Below, piece by piece: positions 6,809-17,182 of a DNA stretch of 64,000 bases (positions within the stretch are counted from its first letter, which is position 1; every line of letters starts with the position of its first letter). The position numbers and the translations under genes are program-made. The DNA comes from an uncultured Oscillospiraceae bacterium (GTDB lineage: Bacteria; Bacillota; Clostridia; Oscillospirales; Ruminococcaceae), in NCBI GenBank assembly GCA_910587335.1, contig CAJUMG010000001.1, positions 88,201 to 152,200 on the forward strand, written 5' to 3'. The notes beneath the pieces are model-generated. The model ran no database searches, was not told the origin of the DNA, and saw only the letters and a list, made by a program, of their open reading frames with translations.

Positions 6809-7177
6809 TTATCCAACCTGCGTCTGATCCTGTATTCTTTCTTCTTTTCCCACTTCTTCCCGAATGGCAACCTCCTGCGTCAGCGTCCGAATTTTTGCAT
6901 CGAGCTGGGAAAGGCGAATGGAAAGAGAAAAAGACTTTAGAATGAGAATAAAAATGATCGCCAAAAAAATAAAGTTAACAGGGGACAGAATTCCCAAAAT
7001 GCCTGCGGCCCAATTTGCAATACTGGGAAAAATACTCAGAATGACCAAAACAGCGGAAAATCCCAACCAAAAAATCGAATCCTCAATCTGCAGCTGAGAT
7101 TTGCGGATCTTTCTGGCAGTATACCACAAGGTCAACAACGATACGACAATCAATGAAACGCGCAGAAACCCTGACAT
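6809..7177 (-). CDS. DUF2304-type small membrane protein (usual partner of the adjacent GT2)
   Basis: 122 aa with 3-4 TM helices and a C-terminal coiled segment. It lies directly downstream of a GT2 gene, with a 1-nt gap. Confidence 0.7.
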   Translation of the reverse strand: MSGFLRVSLIVVSLLTLWYTARKIRKSQLQIEDSIFWLGFSAVLVILSIFPSIANWAAGILGILSPVNFIFLAIIFILILKSFSLSIRLSQLDAKIRTLTQEVAIREEVGKEERIQDQTQVG

Positions 7178-7178
7178 C

Positions 7179-7871
7179 CTAACCCCTCCTTTTGCGGAAC
7201 CATTGTAGCAGTATGATAGAGGTACACATTCGAATCATGTATTCCACCGACCGGCGCAGATTAAAATAACTTTCGCCTGCGATGCGATCCATCATCTGTA
7301 CCTGGACTTCTTCTACCTTTGCACCGTTGCGGATCAGATACGCAATCGTATCCGGTTCCGGTCCATAATTGAGATTTTGGGCAAATTCATGAATCATAGA
7401 CCGATTCAACAACCGCATTCCAGAAGTAGTGTCTTTGATTGTAATGCCGGTAGTCATTTTTATCGCCAGCTGGATCATCTGATTCCCCATCATCCGAAGG
7501 CTGAGGTGCTTCTTTTGATCCTTAAAGCGGGACCCAATGACGATATCCAGGCCCTTTTCCTCCATCAGCGCCGCCATTTCTCCAATGTAGCTGGGATTAT
7601 GCTGGCCATCTCCATCGAACTGAATCGCCATATCGTAGCCTTGGCGGTCCGCAAAGCGCAGGCCTGCCTGAAAAGCACCCGCCAACCCTAAATTGACCGG
7701 TAAATCCAAAAAATGATATCCCCGATCCCGACAGATCTGGGCGGTTCGATCCTTCGAGCCGTCATTTACCACTAAATAATCATACTGCGGATAATTCTCG
7801 ATCAGGTTATCTACGACTCGCTCGATATTATCTTGCTCATTATAAGCCGGAATGACAATCAAGAGCTTCAA
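7179..7871 (-). CDS. family 2 glycosyltransferase (polyprenyl-phosphate sugar synthase-like, soluble form)
   Basis: LIVIPAYNEQDNI...VNDGSKDRT...QFDGDGQH motifs of GT2. Confidence 0.85.
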   Translation of the reverse strand: MKLLIVIPAYNEQDNIERVVDNLIENYPQYDYLVVNDGSKDRTAQICRDRGYHFLDLPVNLGLAGAFQAGLRFADRQGYDMAIQFDGDGQHNPSYIGEMAALMEEKGLDIVIGSRFKDQKKHLSLRMMGNQMIQLAIKMTTGITIKDTTSGMRLLNRSMIHEFAQNLNYGPEPDTIAYLIRNGAKVEEVQVQMMDRIAGESYFNLRRSVEYMIRMCTSIILLQWFRKRRG

Positions 7872-7912
7872 ATTAAACCCTACTTCCTAAAAATGTTTTT
7901 CCTTTATCCCTT

Positions 7913-8875
7913 TCATCTCATCGGATGAAAAACCAATCGTAAACCCGGCGTCCGATCCATTCCCTTTTCCAGCAAAACCGGAATCAAATTCCCCAAAACG
8001 CAAAGAATACACATCCATATAATGGGGACAACCGAAGGGAGCAAACCAAACAGATAAGGGGAAAAGGCAAATAAGATCTGGTGGACTAGATAAATCTGCA
8101 TGGTATACTGGCCAAGCCGCGAACAGGGATTTTCCTTTGTGTTCGCAAAAATGCGGGAGAATAACAGCATCAGCCAACAGCTTCCGGGCAATCCCAGCAG
8201 CAGCTTAACATAACTGTTTGCGATTCCATCGGTTCCTCCCTGGGTTCGGTAACAGACCAGCAAGGCCACTACAAAGATTGCCAGAGAGCCTATTTCTATG
8301 GCGATCTTTGCACCCCCCCCCCGTGGCGTATCTATCATTTCTTTTATTCTACCTGCGAATACAAAAATGAAAAAGTAGCCCAAAAACTTTCCTATTTCAT
8401 TATTCCAAAAACCGCAGACCAGCCACCCTGCTCCTAACAGGATCTCGATCCAAAGGCGTTTGTTTTTGCAGATGATTAAAAGCAGCGGATAAAAGCCTTC
8501 TAAGAGCATGAGAACGCCGAGGAACCAAAAAGACTTTAATGTTACACTGACCGAAGCCAGCAAGCTTTGATCCTGATGCGTTAAGAAGCGCAACAGAACA
8601 TTGATCGCGGAAAAAACAGCGGTAGGAACGATCAGCGCAATCTCCCGGCGAAATAGGAATTTCTTCTTATCCTCTGCCAAAATCCATTTGGGATAGAATA
8701 AAAAGCCGCTTGCCGCAAAAAAGGCCATCATATGAAAGGAGTAGATAAAATACCAAATTTTTTCTCCTAACACCGTCTCATCCAGTTCAGTATATTGCAT
8801 GGAATGCCCTAACACCACCGAAAAAATCAAGAATCCTTTCAGCATGTCCAGCCAAACAATCCTCTTTTTTCCCAT
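7913..8875 (-). CDS. acyltransferase family 3 membrane O-acyltransferase (in frame, carries a G10 tract)
   Basis: 320 aa, polytopic. N-terminus WLDMLKGFLIFSVVLGH is typical of acyltransferase-3. The poly-G tract encodes ...TPRGGGAK... Confidence 0.8.
   Translation of the reverse strand: MGKKRIVWLDMLKGFLIFSVVLGHSMQYTELDETVLGEKIWYFIYSFHMMAFFAASGFLFYPKWILAEDKKKFLFRREIALIVPTAVFSAINVLLRFLTHQDQSLLASVSVTLKSFWFLGVLMLLEGFYPLLLIICKNKRLWIEILLGAGWLVCGFWNNEIGKFLGYFFIFVFAGRIKEMIDTPRGGGAKIAIEIGSLAIFVVALLVCYRTQGGTDGIANSYVKLLLGLPGSCWLMLLFSRIFANTKENPCSRLGQYTMQIYLVHQILFAFSPYLFGLLPSVVPIIWMCILCVLGNLIPVLLEKGMDRTPGLRLVFHPMR
8313..8322 (-). repeat. G10 homopolymer on the coding strand (C10 as given) inside the acyltransferase-3 gene
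   Basis: Counted directly in cacccccccc|cc. Confidence 0.95.
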
Positions 8876-8890
8876 TTTCTACCTTCTTCC

Positions 8891-9916
8891 CTAAAACTTA
8901 AAATCAACATGGAACAGCTTGGTCATGCAGCGATAGCACCACAGGAACAAGCGGAAGCAACCGATTTTATGCAGGATCAGGCTTCCCCAAATGGCCAGAC
9001 CCTTTATTCCATGTTTTTTCAGCTGAGACAGGCGCATCCACCGGTTATCGCTGAACCAGGCATATTCTTCTTTAAAGTAGCTTCTCGTCCACTTTAAATG
9101 CCGGTGCAGATTGATCGCAGGATTGTCGCTGGCCCGCAGAGCCATAGAAAGACCGATATGAATGAACGCCAAAAGAGCAATGATGTCCTTTTCCGCCGCG
9201 TTCTCTGTCTGCCGGTATTGCGCCGCCAGTTCCCCGGCAAACTGATGGATGGTTTCCTCGGCCGTATTGGAGATAATGGATACGCCCCGCACCCGATAAT
9301 GAATCAAAATCTGATCTGTGAAGGCAATCCGCTGGCAATCCCCATAAACCGCCTGTTGGTAGCACAGATCCTCCCCCACCTTAAAATCCGGTATCCGGTG
9401 CGCCAACGCCAGTGTACTGCGGAACATTTTGTTCCACAAAGAGCCGTTGACAAAGGCCAGCACATCGTCTTCCGGCGGAAGAACAATCTCAGCGGGAAAG
9501 CCCCGCATTTCCGTACAGAGAACCTTGCCGCTCTCTTCCATGCGGTCGTAGGCACAGACAGCTACGTCCGCGCCGCTTTTTTCAAGCATGGTATGTAACG
9601 CCTCCAGGTACTGCTGCTCCAACGAATCGTCACCATCTAAGAATACCACATATTTTCCGTCAATGAAACCGGAATTTAACGCCCAATTTCTGGTTTTTGC
9701 CGGGCTGCCCAAATTCTGATCCAGAAAAAAGGCATGAATCCGCCCAGGATACCGCTTGGCGTAATCTTGAATGTAATCTCGCGTCCCATCCTCGGAACAA
9801 TCGTCTACAATCACAATATCAAAATCCTGATAGGTCTGTGCAAAAAGCTCCCCCAAGCAGCGGCCGATATATTTTTCCAGATTATAGGTTGTGATAACGA
9901 CTGTAATTTCAGGCAT
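8891..9916 (-). CDS. family 2 glycosyltransferase
   Basis: ITVVITTYNLEKYIGRCL...VIVDDCSEDGT...DGDD motifs. Confidence 0.85.
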   Translation of the reverse strand: MPEITVVITTYNLEKYIGRCLGELFAQTYQDFDIVIVDDCSEDGTRDYIQDYAKRYPGRIHAFFLDQNLGSPAKTRNWALNSGFIDGKYVVFLDGDDSLEQQYLEALHTMLEKSGADVAVCAYDRMEESGKVLCTEMRGFPAEIVLPPEDDVLAFVNGSLWNKMFRSTLALAHRIPDFKVGEDLCYQQAVYGDCQRIAFTDQILIHYRVRGVSIISNTAEETIHQFAGELAAQYRQTENAAEKDIIALLAFIHIGLSMALRASDNPAINLHRHLKWTRSYFKEEYAWFSDNRWMRLSQLKKHGIKGLAIWGSLILHKIGCFRLFLWCYRCMTKLFHVDFKF

Positions 9917-11126
9917 TTTTCATCCTCCTGAGAGAAAAATGTAACATACCAAGCGATAAAAGCCCGGACAGCAAAAAGGAAATGAGAAAGCTCCACGAAG
10001 CGCCCAAAATACCATATGCCCGCACGAGCGGTATTCCCACTACAAAGCTTATAACAGACACGGCAGCGTAGTTTAATAAAATCAGCTTTTGCTGCCGCAG
10101 CAGCACCAGTAAGAAGTATAGCAAATTGACAATTGCCATAAAACCGCCGCCGATAATAATAAGGAGCAGCGGAACACGATATGCTGACAGATCGGCTTTG
10201 TATAAAAATCCCAATACAGGCGTACCGAATATCCATGCTCCAACGCAGCAAAGCATCTCCAATCCAAACAAAAAGGCAATGTTTTTCCCAAATATTTTAT
10301 AGAACAAGGAGAAGTCCTGTTTTTTAAATGCCTCTCCGTATTCGGCCAGCAAAGGCTTAAACACAAATCCGCTTAATAAATTGATGACTGTTGCAGGCAT
10401 AAAGATCATATTAAAATGTCCCTGGGTAACATCGTCAGACAAATGCTCCAAAAGATATTTGGAACTGTTGATTAGAAGAAGCGATAAAAAGGCCGACAGA
10501 AAAAGCGGAATACATGCCTTTATAAGCCGAAACACCTCGTTTTTTCTCCACGCCAACCGGCCCAGATCAAACTGCCTTGCCAGCCAAAAATCCCACCACC
10601 AGGTCAAGGCCAGATTGGTTAGCAGCAGCACAGCTAAGCTAAACACGATATTCTGAGAAATACTCAAGCACAGGATAAAAGCGAGTGTTGAAAAAAAAGT
10701 TCGGTAAAATAAAGATTTTCCGCTTAAATCAATCCGTTTTTTTTGAAAGTACATGCTCTGATACAGTTCCGCAATGGAATTTAAAATCATAAAAGAGGTC
10801 AATAACACTGTAAAAGATCTTTTATTCCCAGAAAAACCCAAAAACTGAATCGCAGCCACACAGCCGAATACCATTAGGCCGGTAGAAAATATCTTAACCC
10901 AAAAGTAATCGGCAAAGCGATATTCCTCATTGTAATCGGTCATCTGAAAGGAATTCATTCCAAATATACCAATTGTATACAGGATGTGGGCGGTGGTCCA
11001 GGCGATACCAAACTCTCCCGCTACCGCAGCTCCTTTTATCCGGCTGATCAGCATCAGCATGAAAAAGCTGTTGGCAGCGAACATGCCGCTGCCCAGCGTA
11101 TTCCAAATAACGTCCTTTTTCTTCAT
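9909..11126 (-). CDS. Wzx-like polysaccharide/oligosaccharide flippase (MOP superfamily)
   Basis: About 405 aa and about 12 TM helices. The start is taken at MKKKDVIWNTLG just after the licD stop. It overlaps the downstream GT2 by 8 nt. Confidence 0.7.
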   Translation of the reverse strand: MKKKDVIWNTLGSGMFAANSFFMLMLISRIKGAAVAGEFGIAWTTAHILYTIGIFGMNSFQMTDYNEEYRFADYFWVKIFSTGLMVFGCVAAIQFLGFSGNKRSFTVLLTSFMILNSIAELYQSMYFQKKRIDLSGKSLFYRTFFSTLAFILCLSISQNIVFSLAVLLLTNLALTWWWDFWLARQFDLGRLAWRKNEVFRLIKACIPLFLSAFLSLLLINSSKYLLEHLSDDVTQGHFNMIFMPATVINLLSGFVFKPLLAEYGEAFKKQDFSLFYKIFGKNIAFLFGLEMLCCVGAWIFGTPVLGFLYKADLSAYRVPLLLIIIGGGFMAIVNLLYFLLVLLRQQKLILLNYAAVSVISFVVGIPLVRAYGILGASWSFLISFLLSGLLSLGMLHFSLRRMKNA

Positions 11127-11136
11127 GTTTTCTCTC

Positions 11137-12006
11137 TTACGCTTCTTCCATTTTTTCATCGCCAAAGGACAGGAAATACGGATAATGATTTGTCCGTTTC
11201 TCGGCTGGCGGAATCTGCATATAATCGCCAAATGCGTCTTTTAAGATTGCGTCATAATTGTTGGGCACCGAAACCAGCATATCCTCAAACGGCATTTCAA
11301 TGGTCGGAAAAATATCGCTTCTCTTCATAATATCCATCATCGGATAGGTACAATTGAAAACTTTGACATATTCTGTTTTCTGCCCACTGCACATTTCTGT
11401 GTATTTGCGATATTTTCGGTAGATCCACTTAGGGGAAATACAAAGCAGCTTCATTCCATAATGGGCAATCAGGCAGCAAATCCTGATAAGAATTTGCTTA
11501 AAACCCGACATGCTTATATTGGGAGATGGCATTTTTCGCAGCATATAAAGCTTTTGCCAGAACCAGCCCCGGTAAATCTGTTTTTTCCTCTCCTTTTGGC
11601 CGTCCGCCAGATTGTACACCGGTATCACTTCAATTGCGATTCCCGTATCAAAAGGCAGTTTTTTAAAGGATTCCTTGATAAATTTTGTGCCTTTTTTGCA
11701 GATCTGTAGGGTCGGAATGGGAAAATCATTGTCCTCTCCCATAATAAAAAACTGATATTTATCCTTCATCAGTTTTGTCCCCTCTTTTAGAAACAGGTCC
11801 AAATCTTCCCGCATCATGAAGGTGTCAATATCATCATCCCAGGGAATAAATCCCTTATGCCGAACCGCCCCGATCAATGTGCCGCACGGGCCTAAAAAAT
11901 ACTGTATGCCTATTTTTTTGCAGACTTCTGAAAAATCCTTTAAGATTTCCACTTCTTCCAATTGCAGCCTTCTTAGCACATCCGGCTGATATTCTCCATA
12001 AATCAT
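11137..12006 (-). CDS. licD: LicD-family phosphotransferase (phosphocholine / polyol-phosphate transfer to glycans)
   Basis: GTLIGAVRHKGFIPWDDDIDTFM is the LicD signature. Confidence 0.8.
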   Translation of the reverse strand: MIYGEYQPDVLRRLQLEEVEILKDFSEVCKKIGIQYFLGPCGTLIGAVRHKGFIPWDDDIDTFMMREDLDLFLKEGTKLMKDKYQFFIMGEDNDFPIPTLQICKKGTKFIKESFKKLPFDTGIAIEVIPVYNLADGQKERKKQIYRGWFWQKLYMLRKMPSPNISMSGFKQILIRICCLIAHYGMKLLCISPKWIYRKYRKYTEMCSGQKTEYVKVFNCTYPMMDIMKRSDIFPTIEMPFEDMLVSVPNNYDAILKDAFGDYMQIPPAEKRTNHYPYFLSFGDEKMEEA

Positions 12007-12102
12007 AATGAAACTCCCTTTTCCATAAAGTACGTTATTTCAAAGAAAAAACACCCATATGACACTGACTGCTGATTGAACGCCCTTTGAAGTATCCTTT
12101 TA

Positions 12103-13236
12103 TCAATATTTTTCACAAAGCTCGAGACTGAGTTTTTTCACCTCCTGTTCCATACAGGCGCTTCTTTCACCCAGTACAGCTTCGATCTCATGATAATGCT
12201 CCAGCACCTTTTCTCCCATCGCCCGCGTATTGAGGGAGGTGATCTGCCCCATTTGCAGCCCGTATTCCTCCATACCCAAACGCCTGAGCAATTCCAGATT
12301 TTTTTGATCATACAGCAAAGCGATCACCGGAACCCTTTGGCGTGCCGCAAAGATGATCGAATGCATTCTCATCCCAAACAAAAGATAGCTGTTTTCCACT
12401 ACTTCCGCCATTTGTTTACAGTTCCAGTCATCCGGAACCATTTGAAAATCAATATCGGATAGCTTTTCCTGCAAACGCCTGCCCAAAATGGCATCGTGAA
12501 AAACCGTTGGAACGAATAAGATCTTTTTGGAAAAAAATTTTGATAATTCCCGAATACATACCGCCAGTTCATTCTCTCGCTCTGAAAAATTCATTTGATC
12601 TCTTTTCCAGAAATTTGACGATTCAAACCACTGACATGCGGTAACGCAAAGATATTCTTTTTCTTTCACCTGCAATATTTGCAAGGTTTCTCCATTACAA
12701 ATATTTTTCTTTTTTACACCAAAGGCGGCATCAGCCGTGAGCCGTACTTTTATTCCAAGCTCTTCACAGGTATCGAACCCCAACTCGTCTCGCGCAGTAA
12801 CATCCGCTTTTCTCAAAAAAAACCGACTCAAAGCCCGGCTCCAATTCCTTTTTAAAGGCCTAATGCCCATACAATAATAACAAACTTTTTTTCGAAAAAG
12901 CATTGCAAAAGCCTGCCACAAATATAAAAAGGGAAGGTTGTACGGTGTCAAATCATGAATCAAGCTTCCCCCACCATACATAAGCATATCGCACCGGCAT
13001 ACTTCTCTGAGTATACCGAACGAATCTTTTATCATGCTCCACAATACGGAAAATGAAAAGCCCTCATTTAACCGGCACGGAACATCCTTTACCGGCAAAA
13101 AAGAACTAACCTTTTCATATGCGCCACAGGTTGCGCTAATCTGCGCATTGGGAAACTGCTCGCAAATACTTTGTAAAATCGCATCATCCCCTCGATTTCC
13201 GCATCCATAGGAGCCAATTACAAAAATTTTCTCCAT
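12103..13236 (-). CDS. polysaccharide pyruvyl transferase family protein (CsaB/WcaK-like)
   Basis: N-terminus IFVIGSYGCGNRGDDAILQSI and the overall length fit the PS_pyruv_trans family. Confidence 0.75.
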   Translation of the reverse strand: MEKIFVIGSYGCGNRGDDAILQSICEQFPNAQISATCGAYEKVSSFLPVKDVPCRLNEGFSFSVLWSMIKDSFGILREVCRCDMLMYGGGSLIHDLTPYNLPFLYLWQAFAMLFRKKVCYYCMGIRPLKRNWSRALSRFFLRKADVTARDELGFDTCEELGIKVRLTADAAFGVKKKNICNGETLQILQVKEKEYLCVTACQWFESSNFWKRDQMNFSERENELAVCIRELSKFFSKKILFVPTVFHDAILGRRLQEKLSDIDFQMVPDDWNCKQMAEVVENSYLLFGMRMHSIIFAARQRVPVIALLYDQKNLELLRRLGMEEYGLQMGQITSLNTRAMGEKVLEHYHEIEAVLGERSACMEQEVKKLSLELCEKY

Positions 13237-13913
13237 CTAATTTTCCTCCAGAAGAGACGTATCAAAACTTCTTAAGCGATCTAAATTTTGGTAAATCTTT
13301 TCTGTATCCCAATTCCACCACTGTAATTTTTGAAGCAGATCCATTTTTTCCTGCTCAAAACGGTACTTAATCACCTTGGCAGGAGCCCCAGCGGCAACCG
13401 CGTAAGGAGGAATGTCCTTTGTCACGACAGAACGAGCGCCAATGACCGCGCCGTTTCCAATCTTTACGCCGCCTTTGATCACAACATCCTGACCAATCCA
13501 AACATCATTCCCAACAATTGTCGGCGGCGGAATAAATACCCCCCCCCGTGCTGTATCCTATTATAAAAGGGGGAAGTAATGCCATTCATTCGGTAGCTGC
13601 TGAATTCGCGGAAAGGGTGTTCGTTCAATCCTACGGTAAGTCCATCGGCAATGCAACAGAATTTTCCAATCGAAACATTTGACATAAAAACATTTTGTTT
13701 CATAAAACTGTAATCGCCAATCGAAACATTTCGGGAAAAAACCGACCAGCCGTATAGAAAAACACCTTTTCCAATTTTCGGTTTATAAACCACCTTGGAA
13801 ACCCAATGTTTCAGCGGTAGGGGAAGCTTATGAAAAATCTGTATTAAAAATTTAGGGTAGAATTGCGATAAAAATTTACTCACTTTCATTCTCCTTAAGA
13901 AGAGTCTCATCAA
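13237..13913 (-). pseudogene. XAT-class hexapeptide-repeat O-acetyltransferase, copy 1, frame-disrupted at a G9 tract (candidate phase-OFF state)
   Basis: ORFs 13479-13913 and 13237-13482 together form one acetyltransferase (...NVSIGKFCCIADGLTVGLNEHP... / ...[30 protein letters not shown]...YRFEQEK...LQWWNW). The frames differ such that G10 restores a single ORF. The true start is probably at 13889 (ATG) or 13883 (GTG). Confidence 0.8.
13539..13547 (-). repeat. G9 homopolymer on the coding strand (C9 as given)
   Basis: Counted directly: aataaatacc|ccccccc|gtg. Confidence 0.95.
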
Positions 13914-14509
13914 ACTTCTTAAGGCGGTCTAAATTTTGGTAAATTTCCTCTGGAGTCCAGTTCCACCACTGCAGTTTCTCTAAAAAATCAATTTTCTCCT
14001 GTTCAAAACGGTACTTGATTACCTTAGCGGGAACACCCGCAACAACCGCATAGGGAGGAACGTCCCTTGTCACAACAGAACGGGCGCCGATAACCGCGCC
14101 GTCTCCAATCTTTACACCGCCTTTGATCACAACGTCCTGACCAATCCAGACGTCATTCCCGACGGTGGTAAAGGTGTCGTTTAATACCCCCCCCCCCGTG
14201 TCGTATTCTATTGCAGAGAGGAGACCAAATTTCATTCATCCGATAGCTGCTGAATTCATGATAGGGGTGCTCGTTTAATCCTACCGTAAGCCCATCGGCA
14301 ATGCAACAAAATTTTCCAATGGAGACATTTGACATAAACGTATTTTGCTTTAAGTAGGAGTAATCGCCAATAGAGACATTTCGGGAAAAAACCGACCAGC
14401 CAACCAGCGAAACCTTTTTTCCCAGCTTTGGTTTATATATCCATTTGGAAGCCCAGTGCTGAAAAGGGCGGGGCAAGCGGTAATAAACTTTATAGAAAAA
14501 GGTTTTCAT
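13876..14509 (-). pseudogene. XAT-class hexapeptide-repeat O-acetyltransferase, copy 2, frame-disrupted at a G11 tract (candidate phase-OFF state)
   Basis: ORFs 14153-14509 and 13876-14235 are paralogous to copy 1 and break at the same ...NRI(R/Q)HGGG position. Removing one G (to G10) fuses the frames. Confidence 0.8.
14187..14197 (-). repeat. G11 homopolymer on the coding strand (C11 as given)
   Basis: Counted directly: ttaatacccc|ccccccc|gtg. Confidence 0.95.
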
Positions 14510-14519
14510 CCTTTTGTTC

Positions 14520-15959
14520 CTACTTCCCTATCTTTTTAATCCGGAAGGCGATATAGGTAAAGCCCGCCTTCATCACCCGTTTAAACTCCACCCAGCTTAA
14601 ATTGGCCAGGAAGGTTTTGAAAATATAGGTAAAGGAGAAGTAGTAGCGGCTCATCAGGTGATCCCGCAGCTTTTCAATCTCCTTGGCGTTGGCGTAAGGG
14701 TAATTGACCAGGCAGTCCAAATACCCATCCTGATTCAGCCATTTGGAATAATCCTCGGTCTTAAGGTACCCTTCGTCCTTCACCCACTGATAGAACGCCG
14801 TTCCGGGGAAGGGAACCGCCTGTTGGAAAAACACCTCGTTGGCATAGACCTTTTTCGCAAAACGGAAGGTATCCTCTATGGTGCTCAGATCATCGCCCTT
14901 CAGACCGATCATAAAGCAGCCGAACACCTTGATTCCCAGCTTTTTGGTGTTTTGGGCAAAGGCCAGGGAATCCTCTAGCTTAATTCCCTTGCGGGTTTCA
15001 TCCAAAACTTTCTGATTGCCGGATTCGTACCCTACAACCAAAAGCCGGCAGCCCGCTTCCTTCATCTTGGCCATAACCTCGTAAGGAAGATCCGCCCGGG
15101 TGTTGCAGGACCAAACCAGCTTCAGTCCCCGGCGCTTAATCTCATCGCAGATCTCCACCACCCTCTTTTTATCCACGGTGAAGGTGTCGTCCTCGATAAA
15201 AATTTCCTGGATATAGGGCATATGTACCGCGATATATTCTAATTCGTCCACAAAGCTTTTCACGCTGCGCTTGCGAAAGCACCGGCCGCTCATGGTCTCT
15301 GGATAGGAGCAGAAATTACAGCGGAAAGGGCAACCGCGGGCGCTGAAAATCTGGATCATGGGTTTGCGGGCAAAGGCGTAGCAATAATCGTTTACATCCA
15401 AAAACTTCTCATAGATTTTCGACACAAACGGAAGCTCATCCAAATCCTCTGTCCAAGGACGGTCCGGGTTTTTCACAATCTGCCCATCCTTACGCCAGGT
15501 AACGCCCAGAACATTTTCCAGCTTTTCTCCCGCTTTCATCACTTCGTCCAGCGTGAAGTCATATTCCTGCCGGACAACCACATCAATCGCCGCGCACTCT
15601 TCCATCACCCGCTCGGACAAGGCGGTGGCATGGGTGCCCCCAATAATGATTTTTCCCTGTGGGTGAGCCTTTTTTATCGCATCCAGGGTTTCATAGTCAT
15701 GGAAACAGGTCGAAGTGGTAATCTCTCCCATCACGTAATCCGGCGCAGATTTGCGAACCAGCTCTGCTGTCTCTTCGGTGGTCATTTTTTTTGCGATACA
15801 GTCAACCAGCTCCACCTCGTATCCCCGATCCATGCAAACGCCGGCGGCATAGCACAGCCAATAGGGATAGTACATGGTGCCGCTTTTGGTCTTTTCCGGC
15901 CAGCGGCTGGAACGGCTGATGGCAAATTTGTAAGGCAAATTTAAAAATAATATTTTCAC
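14520..15959 (-). CDS. B12-binding-domain radical SAM enzyme (class B)
   Basis: The N-terminal Rossmann-like B12 domain (MKILFLNLPY...ELVDC...IIIGGTHAT) is followed by the CPFRCNFC CX3CX2C cluster motif. Confidence 0.85.
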   Translation of the reverse strand: MKILFLNLPYKFAISRSSRWPEKTKSGTMYYPYWLCYAAGVCMDRGYEVELVDCIAKKMTTEETAELVRKSAPDYVMGEITTSTCFHDYETLDAIKKAHPQGKIIIGGTHATALSERVMEECAAIDVVVRQEYDFTLDEVMKAGEKLENVLGVTWRKDGQIVKNPDRPWTEDLDELPFVSKIYEKFLDVNDYCYAFARKPMIQIFSARGCPFRCNFCSYPETMSGRCFRKRSVKSFVDELEYIAVHMPYIQEIFIEDDTFTVDKKRVVEICDEIKRRGLKLVWSCNTRADLPYEVMAKMKEAGCRLLVVGYESGNQKVLDETRKGIKLEDSLAFAQNTKKLGIKVFGCFMIGLKGDDLSTIEDTFRFAKKVYANEVFFQQAVPFPGTAFYQWVKDEGYLKTEDYSKWLNQDGYLDCLVNYPYANAKEIEKLRDHLMSRYYFSFTYIFKTFLANLSWVEFKRVMKAGFTYIAFRIKKIGK

Positions 15960-16138
15960 GATTCGTTCTCCTTCTTACTGATAGTAATAACTGAGCGGCT
16001 TGGAAAAACCATCTATCTATAGCGATGCCATTGGCCCCAAGGGCAATGGTATTATAGACTTAGTTTATAGAAAAATCGATATTTGGCGTCCGGCCCCATC
16101 CTGGGGAATCGGGAGCATTCATAATAAATGGGATCCCT

Positions 16139-17182
16139 TTACAAAATCCCAAAACGCGCAGGACCCGTATCAGCGTTCTCTTTACCGAAAGCACCGGAAA
16201 GGTCGCCGCTGGCCATATGCTCCCACCAGCTCCTGTTCTCCAAATACCAGCAAATCGTTTTTTGGATCCCTTCATCAAATCCCGTGGTTGGCAGCCAGCC
16301 CAATTCCGCCTGTATTTTTGTCGAATCCACCCCATACCGCCGGTCATGTCCCGGTCGGTCGGCGACAAATCGGATCAAGCTTTCCGGTTTGTTAAGTACA
16401 CGAAGGATCGTTTTGACTACCTCCAAATTTGTGCGTTCGTTGTGGCCGCCAATATTATAGACGCCGCCAGCTTTACCTTTTTGTACAACCAGATCAATGG
16501 CGGCGCAGTGGTCGGCGACATAAAGCCAGTCCCGGACATTTTCACCCGTACCGTAAACCGGCAAAGGCTGATTCTTCAGCGCACGAATCAGCATCAGCGG
16601 GATCAGCTTCTCCGGGAACTGGTAAGGCCCATAGTTGTTGGAACAGCGGGAAATGCTGACTGGAAGCCCAAAGGTTCGGTGATAGGCCTGTACCAACAGG
16701 TCGGCCGACGCTTTGGACGCCGAATAAGGGCTGGAAGCGCAAAGCGGCGTGTTCTCTGTAAAAAACAGATCCGGACGGTCCAGCGGCAGGTCGCCATACA
16801 CCTCATCGGTGGAAACCTGATGATACCGCTTTATGCCATACTGGCGGCAAGCATCCATCAAAACACCAGCGCCTAAAATGTTGGTCTTTAAAAAGATGTC
16901 CGGCTTCGTCACCGAACGGTCCACATGGCTTTCCGCTGCAAAGTTGATCACCACATCCGGCTTTTCCTTTAGGAATAGATCGCAAACCGCTTTCCGGTCC
17001 GTAATATCCGCTTTGATAAAGGTAAAGCGGGGATTCTCCATGACCGATTCCAATGTTTCCAGGTGGCCTCCATAGGTCAGACTATCCAGGCATATGATTT
17101 GGTCTTCCGGGTATTTTTCTATCAGAAAAAACACAAAATTGCTGCCGATAAATCCGGCTCCCCCGGTGACTAACCATTTCAT
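16139..17182 (-). CDS. rfbB: dTDP-glucose 4,6-dehydratase
   Basis: MKWLVTGGAGFIGSNF..., YSASKASAD catalytic YxxxK, and length about 345 aa. Confidence 0.9.
   Translation of the reverse strand: MKWLVTGGAGFIGSNFVFFLIEKYPEDQIICLDSLTYGGHLETLESVMENPRFTFIKADITDRKAVCDLFLKEKPDVVINFAAESHVDRSVTKPDIFLKTNILGAGVLMDACRQYGIKRYHQVSTDEVYGDLPLDRPDLFFTENTPLCASSPYSASKASADLLVQAYHRTFGLPVSISRCSNNYGPYQFPEKLIPLMLIRALKNQPLPVYGTGENVRDWLYVADHCAAIDLVVQKGKAGGVYNIGGHNERTNLEVVKTILRVLNKPESLIRFVADRPGHDRRYGVDSTKIQAELGWLPTTGFDEGIQKTICWYLENRSWWEHMASGDLSGAFGKENADTGPARFGIL

Follow-up and report, generated by a model that had tools for sequence, protein, structure and literature searches.

Most discussion of phase variation in gut commensals concerns invertible promoters, with Bacteroides capsules and Clostridioides difficile as the usual examples. 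The locus described here raises another question: does an uncultured mouse-gut species of Clostridia vary its surface by means of poly-G tracts that lie inside genes? We address it in a 64-kb stretch of DNA (the window, by which we mean the whole stretch that was analysed), where a gene for a membrane O-acyltransferase of the AT3 family carries ten consecutive guanines within its reading frame. Such a run could be a switch, an accident of sequence, a site of gene decay, or an error of assembly. We describe the locus and the gene, compare tract lengths among public assemblies and across the genome, and weigh these readings against one another.

The locus and its three poly-G tracts

The window contains a Gram-positive-type cell-envelope glycopolymer locus (Table 1). 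Its genes are, in order, rfbB (dTDP-glucose 4,6-dehydratase), a B12-radical SAM gene, hexA, hexB, a CsaB-like pyruvyl transferase gene, LicD, a Wzx-like flippase gene, a TuaG-like GT2 gene, the AT3 gene, a GT2 gene like those of polyprenyl-phosphate-sugar synthases, and DUF2304. Long G/C runs are confined to three of these genes. An earlier note on this DNA had claimed, by eye, that the window holds no other long G/C run, that all three runs fall in acyltransferase genes of one glycopolymer locus, and that each C-run is followed by GTG. An automated scan of the 64 kb finds G/C runs of at least 7 bases at three sites only (10, 9, and 11 bases long); Pfam assigns the genes that hold them to AT3 and to tandem hexapeptide acetyltransferases; and all three runs, each of them C on the + strand, are followed by GTG. 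The observations of the earlier note on the window are thereby confirmed.

Table 1. Coordinates of the locus, its acyltransferase genes, and their tracts within the window
Feature	Coordinates	Strand	Details
Cell-envelope glycopolymer locus with three putative switches	6809..17182	-	Pfam and NCBIfam; gene order the same in all public contigs
AT3 membrane O-acyltransferase gene, stand-alone	7913..8875	-	320 aa, ON in this assembly; PF01757
Poly-G tract, the putative switch of the AT3 gene	8313..8322	-	G10 on the coding strand, in frame, codons 185-188 of the AT3 gene
Hexapeptide-repeat acetyltransferase gene B (hexB), paralogue of A	13237..13889	-	Cut at the tract
Poly-G tract G9 in hexB	13539..13547	-	OFF here; G10 = ON (215 aa); G11 = OFF
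Hexapeptide-repeat acetyltransferase gene A (hexA)	13876..14509	-	Cut at the tract into 118-aa and 119-aa ORFs
Poly-G tract G11 in hexA	14187..14197	-	Frame broken, OFF here; G10 = ON (210 aa)

The AT3 gene and its product

Across the tract of the AT3 gene, the + strand reads ...tttgca-CCCCCCCCCC-gtggcg..., with a C run of exactly 10, that is, G10 on the minus coding strand. The tract codons are CGG GGG GGG GGT and encode R-G-G-G. The minus-strand ORF starts at an ATG, and its translation contains IDTPRGGGAKIAIE around the tract; the longer tract context in the ORF reads GRIKEMIDTPRGGGAKIAIEIG. All details match the earlier reading of this run as an in-frame C10 at about codon 185 of a 320-codon AT3 ORF.

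The product is a well-supported member of its family. It matches Pfam Acyl_transf_3 (PF01757) with E=1.1e-30 and 107 bits (cut-off 31), and residues 7-302 align to profile positions 2-324 of 326, nearly the whole profile. A hydropathy scan, which is a crude method, gives about 10 hydrophobic segments. The AT3 domain is a bundle of about 10 helices whose essential residues line a central cavity; its essential motifs are R-X10-H in TMH1 and RXXR at the cytoplasmic face of TMH3 (PMC9833829). At the position of the TMH1 motif, the protein has K13-X10-H24 (WLDMLKGFLIFSVVLGH): the His is present, and Lys replaces Arg. Ahead of the third hydrophobic segment stands a basic cluster, KKKFLFRRE, with no exact RXXR. 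The tract falls in a hydrophilic loop, GRIKEMIDTPRGGGAK, between the hydrophobic segments at 160-175 and 188-210 (the sixth and seventh). Searches with the AT3 protein found no relative among PDB sequences and none in the genome contigs. The family, together with the two GT2 genes that flank the AT3 gene in the glycopolymer locus, points to acyl-CoA-dependent O-acylation of an extracytoplasmic glycan as the probable activity.

Tract lengths in public assemblies

Public assemblies were fetched by exact protein look-up, such that the frequencies of states among them do not amount to an unbiased census. Tract lengths were compared between consensus assemblies, some with low coverage (4-13x by contig names), and mouse-gut metagenomes are the source of several records. 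The cluster to which the AT3 protein belongs at 90% identity includes, besides proteins of 320 aa, one of 223 aa (P0006, 4 contigs) and one of 192 aa (P0011). Both short proteins match the full one residue for residue as far as ...IDTPRGG(G) and diverge right after, and their lengths of 192 and 223 aa are exactly those predicted for the -1 and +1 frames. At the DNA level, the tract is G11 in L016-L018, G9 in L019, and G10 in the window and in L020-L034; G10 is the commonest length among the full-length gene copies retrieved. There is also an interrupted allele, G6AG3, encoding R-G-E-G (L006-L015), and with this allele the gene is full length in 10 of the 10 contigs listed.

The two acetyltransferase genes vary in the same manner. 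The hexA tract is seen as G10 (ON) or G11, and the hexB tract as G9, G10 (ON), or G11. The intact 210-aa form of hexA occurs in L007, L016, L020, L021, and L025, and the intact 215-aa form of hexB in L006, L016, L021, L022, L023, and L025.

An alignment of eight copies of the locus provides the strain comparison. Four of these copies stem each from a separate sample: L016 from ERZ14425205, L020 from ERZ14425192, L021 from SRR15510219, and L022 from SRR31301527. Over a core of 9,483 bp they show 0 substitutions, and across their full overlaps, which extend up to 13.3 kb, no more than 1; their core indels lie at the three tracts only. The tract lengths, given as (hexA, hexB, AT3), are (10,10,11) in L016, (10,11,10) in L020, (10,10,10) in L021, and (11,10,10) in L022, so none of the four is more than one tract away from the all-ON form. 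Since indels are confined to the tracts on a core without substitutions, length changes at the tracts occur at a far higher rate than point mutations; and since each of these near-clonal assemblies is at most one tract from all-ON, the three tracts change independently of one another. The window, at (11,9,10), adds a further state, and with it 5 of the 8 possible ON/OFF combinations have been found.

These comparisons bear on three points of the earlier note. It had held that a +1 or -1 change would truncate the AT3 enzyme, and the 223-aa (G11) and 192-aa (G9) forms in public assemblies are such truncations. It had called for a search for tract-length variation among strains; the AT3 tract occurs as G9, G10, and G11, and among the four near-clonal assemblies the tracts are the only core sites that differ. 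Finally, it had envisaged three independent switches giving up to eight acylation states. The single-tract differences support the independence, and five of the eight combinations are seen; the eight states, in turn, are to be read as genotypes, each of which might correspond to a distinct chemical acylation state. When JGI metagenome contigs were scanned for the exact pattern of the tract flanks, nothing matched; the flank used carries a strain polymorphism (GCA/ACA).

The genome-wide repertoire of long G/C runs

The genome (G000) comprises 2.03 Mb in 42 contigs, with 49.4% G+C. The best relatives of the ClpC encoded in the window are those of Clostridium leptum and of Oscillospiraceae/Acutalibacteraceae MAGs, at about 65% identity. 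Across the whole genome, the G/C runs number 1559 of length 5, 201 of length 6, 11 of length 7, 1 of length 8, 3 of length 9, 9 of length 10, and 1 each of lengths 11, 12, and 20. The distribution is bimodal: it falls steeply to 8 and rises to a second mode at about 10. Runs of at least 9 number 15, against 0.08-0.6 expected when the decay of the shorter G/C runs is extrapolated (Poisson P ~2e-16), and 3 of the 15 sit within 6 kb, all in one locus. A second peak of this kind, at about 10, marks selected contingency tracts. Random scatter, which the earlier note had named as the contrary outcome of a genome-wide scan, is not what the census gives: the long runs form a separate length class around G10 and, by gene listing, lie mostly in envelope genes.

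The glycan and surface part of the 15 tracts consists of the three acyltransferases of the locus, a GT1 glycosyltransferase, and four surface proteins (two with Cadherin-like or Cna_B domains). The remainder comprises a SAM-methyltransferase, a radical-SAM gene with C20, an Asp/Glu racemase, gatD by murT, a GntR regulator, and two non-coding sites.

Several of these tracts deserve separate mention. The SAM-methyltransferase gene (248 aa) adjoins a resolvase gene and has G12 at G000:C17:37837-37848; in public assemblies its tract occurs as G10, G11, G12 (ON), G13, and G14, mostly OFF. The C20 run, at G000:C10:68896-68915, encodes a poly-proline linker and parts a 358-aa radical-SAM ORF from a 136-aa ORF. 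Elsewhere this gene occurs in 354-359-aa versus 468-470-aa forms, and the existence of the fused 468-470-aa forms in other assemblies makes the long form the ON state. Two ten-base tracts, at G000:C8:52368-52377 and G000:C5:36903-36912, are peptidoglycan-related (gatD; Asp/Glu racemase). gatD lies directly downstream of murT; the racemase tract is a C10 that encodes P-P-P, and a truncated C9 form is present in one NCBI assembly.

A pair of surface-protein paralogues, of 665 and 283 aa, have C10 near the 5' end of their genes, at G000:C3:55892-55901 and G000:C3:100272-100281. They have no Pfam match, carry NPxTG-like motifs at the extreme C terminus, and show no obvious same-frame start codon upstream of C10; as the sequence stands, both may be OFF here. 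Of the two non-coding tracts, the G9 at G000:C3:51623-51631 lies just upstream of a AGGAAGGA ribosome-binding site of a minus-strand gene, and the G10 at G000:C1:33639-33648 is intergenic. Either could act on transcription or through the 5' UTR.

Origin of the AT3 tract and its counterparts in relatives

An AT3 orthologue of 58% identity reads IDNPKIQGAQ at the tract site, aligns there without a gap, and has no G run. It follows that substitutions created the G run, in a loop that tolerates them, and that the protein can do without it. A requirement of the AT3 protein for the G run can thus be ruled out: the orthologue has KIQG in its place, with the length unchanged. Once present, the tract stays at about 10 in lineages of the species that are 1-2.5% apart. 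In the congeneric G005, orthologous tracts are kept in the GT1, surface-protein, and GntR genes.

Other congeneric species carry tracts at different sites. In G008, an AT3 homologue (40-47% identity; L003/L054) is split by a G9 at G008:C16:51212-51220. This G9 occupies a different loop, which in the AT3 protein of the window falls between residues 139 and 150. Its surroundings are similar (...YTPRGG...), and a switch seems to have originated here independently within this gene family. G003 (L053) has an in-frame G10 (..YPHGGGVATGCSCGVD..) at G003:C14:185-194; the gene that contains it is uncharacterised, lies immediately upstream of the flippase gene, and shares the corresponding locus with an intact AT3 homologue. 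Judged from the sequences compared, poly-G tracts recur in these loci across the genus. In a search of 40 relatives, 19 proved to have no G9 run.

A shared sequence context

The long tracts resemble one another in their flanks. We examined 16 tracts of at least 8, the three of the window and 13 on contigs C1, C3, C4, C5, C8, C10, C17, and C25 of G000. Read on the G strand, AC stands immediately 5' in 10 of the 16 and TA immediately 3' in 12 of the 16. Among control runs of 5-7 G (n=1,771), the figures are 2.8% for AC and 5.7% for TA (binomial P ~2e-12 each). TAC recurs at -8 to -6 in several unrelated genes, in differing reading frames, and CCCCTC-G10-TA is common to three tracts. Part of the AC-Gn-TA bias is paralogy or orthology, and congeneric G005 shares the pattern at orthologous tracts. 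The pattern does not extend to the order as a whole: G025, which belongs to another family and has many G9 runs, shows no such bias.

One could read these data as a species-wide poly-G 'phasome' of about 15 loci in an Oscillospirales commensal of the gut, one that reaches past surface glycans into peptidoglycan chemistry, with the shared context pointing to a sequence-specific process that creates tracts or promotes slippage. If true, this would mean a sequence-specific process rather than chance G runs refined by selection. The peptidoglycan reach would consist of the Asp/Glu racemase, the gatD tract being invariant. We consider this extended reading unlikely.

Weighing the explanations

The differences among G9, G10, and G11 could in principle be errors that short-read assemblies make in homopolymers. 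Runs of 10 or more invite such errors, and at the low stated coverage of several contigs consensus errors at G10-11 are conceivable. Errors, however, would have to repeat themselves: one G11 form recurs in 4 contigs, which represent at least 3 samples, and the G13 form of the methyltransferase in 13 contigs. They would also have to be selective. The A/T runs of 7-8 in the same core (n=9) are of constant length, those of 8 included, even between lineages 115-246 substitutions apart. The gatD product is 241 aa in about 46 indexed blocks (23 contigs read), and the gene holds an in-frame G10 in both assemblies inspected; the short members of its cluster sit on short contigs. The GntR gene with its G9 has one protein form across 40 contigs. 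That the gatD G10 is kept in frame makes assembly error unlikely as a source of the variation, and purifying selection on an important gene would spare the gatD and GntR tracts, which assembly error would not do. Variation is limited to dispensable surface genes, and error would not respect such limits. We therefore see very little chance that the length differences are artefacts.

A second reading accepts the variation and denies it a function: the G run would be a chance or neutral mutational hot spot, and G9 and G11 would mark one-way gene decay. A change from ON to OFF is expected wherever an accessory gene decays, assorted mutations are known to abolish AT3 capsule genes (pneumococcal wcjE is an example), and the evidence here comes from assemblies rather than from direct reversion. 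Decay, in contrast, does not account well for run lengths that are bimodal with a mode at exactly 10, for +1 and -1 forms that both occur on a background with 0 core substitutions, or for a tract held at its length across diverged lineages, with tracts in other genes kept at orthologous sites in G005. The same design appears three times in a single locus, and the OFF alleles carry no further disabling mutation across the aligned core. On balance, decay without a switch is improbable. A different possibility places the variation downstream of the DNA, with transcriptional slippage or ribosomal frameshifting on the G run restoring the frame and DNA length tuning the amount of enzyme. Long homopolymers can provoke RNA-polymerase slippage, which is best documented for A/T runs, and this could coexist with DNA-level variation. 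The sequence does not demand it, though, and in-frame G10 is the commonest length among full-length copies, as expected if the DNA frame matters; recoding as the principal explanation is hardly probable. The reading that we favour, at a probability of roughly 0.8, is that G10 in the AT3 gene is a hypermutable homopolymeric tract and the gene a contingency locus, in which slipped-strand ON/OFF switching would make acyl decoration phase variable.

The genome retains mismatch repair genes. mutL is intact and there are two MutS-family genes, which rules out the loss of mismatch repair as the cause of instability; with mutS and mutL present, the instability rests on tract length and not on a repair defect. 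Neisseria and Haemophilus also retain mismatch repair. The mutS gene at G000:C7:14713-17410 seems split (into 612-aa and 340-aa frames), but the break is a 10-N scaffold gap rather than a frameshift, and mutL follows.

A model for variable acylation

The proposed mechanism begins with slipped-strand mispairing during replication, which would add or remove one G of the AT3 tract and would presumably be reversible within a population. G10 preserves the frame and yields the full 10-helix AT3 acyltransferase. With G9 or G11, the frame shifts in the loop that follows the sixth hydrophobic segment, and translation stops 4 (G9) or 35 (G11) codons on. The resulting products retain the N-terminal motifs (K13-X10-H24) and lack the last four membrane helices; they are predicted to be inactive.

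Two kinds of allele invite further predictions. In the OFF forms, about 290-390 untranslated bases precede the next gene, and such a stretch after an early stop makes polarity on the downstream GT2/DUF2304 pair possible; OFF alleles may thus act on these genes as well. The G6AG3 allele should represent a natural 'locked-on' form of the AT3 gene, and in C. jejuni tracts have been locked experimentally by interruption of the run (PMC8437040).

Acting together, the AT3, hexA, and hexB tracts would allow one clone to give rise to subpopulations with differing acyl decorations, with the cell-wall glycopolymer as the presumed acceptor of the acyl groups. The likely benefit would be that some cells evade phages or host IgA directed at the polymer, these being the presumed selective agents.

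If this model is correct, an uncultured mouse-gut species of Clostridia uses contingency genes of the Campylobacter/Neisseria style, varying on a background without core substitutions, to diversify the acyl decoration of a wall polymer, and its genome would hold about a dozen further such switches. For strain-level metagenomics, such 'frameshifted pseudogenes' would be live switches, which bears on the inference of gene content from MAGs. It bears equally on how phages and IgA see Gram-positive commensals. The mechanism itself would come as no surprise to specialists in phase variation.

Comparison with known systems

A limited literature search found no report of SSR contingency loci in Oscillospiraceae, Ruminococcaceae, Lachnospiraceae, or Clostridia. 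In other bacteria, the closest counterpart is pglI of Neisseria (NMB1836), a phase-variable pilin-glycan O-acetyltransferase gene with a genic G tract of 9-15 (PMC5953494, PMC9558356). Both systems combine an AT3-family decorator of a surface glycan with a poly-G tract inside the gene. PglI, however, is an AT3-SGNH fusion that acts on a protein-linked glycan in a Gram-negative pathogen, whereas the AT3 protein described here is a stand-alone protein of 320 aa, encoded in a wall-polysaccharide locus of a Gram-positive-type gut commensal; the kinship shown is that of the Pfam family only.

The oafA gene of H. influenzae encodes an AT3 O-acetyltransferase of LOS heptose III and is subject to host-selected ON/OFF switching through an intragenic repeat (PMC9558356; PMC6479036). 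It is likewise an AT3 gene with the switching repeat inside. It differs in that the repeat is a tetranucleotide instead of a homopolymer and in that the substrate is LOS.

At the level of the genome, the nearest parallel is C. jejuni, with 12-29 poly-G/C tracts per genome, mostly intragenic and clustered in capsule, LOS, and flagellar-glycan genes, and with 2^n phasotypes (PMC8437040). The genome studied here is alike in its 15 tracts of at least 9, clustered in glycan and surface-protein loci, and its species also has a natural interrupted allele. C. jejuni is AT-rich and is not known to possess MutS/MutL-type mismatch repair, unlike the present genome, which has 49% G+C together with mutS and mutL. 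The tracts here, unlike those of C. jejuni, also extend to peptidoglycan genes (gatD and the Asp/Glu racemase) and share the AC-Gn-TA context.

Invertible promoters control the capsules of gut Bacteroides and cwpV and flagella in C. difficile (PMC13742949; PMC11892184). These systems, too, produce combinatorial surface variation in gut bacteria; their mechanism is site-specific DNA inversion and not repeat slippage. Set against these precedents, the kind of switch proposed for the AT3 gene is well known from Campylobacter and Neisseria, and the present case draws its interest chiefly from the host group in which it is found and from the size of the poly-G repertoire to which it belongs.
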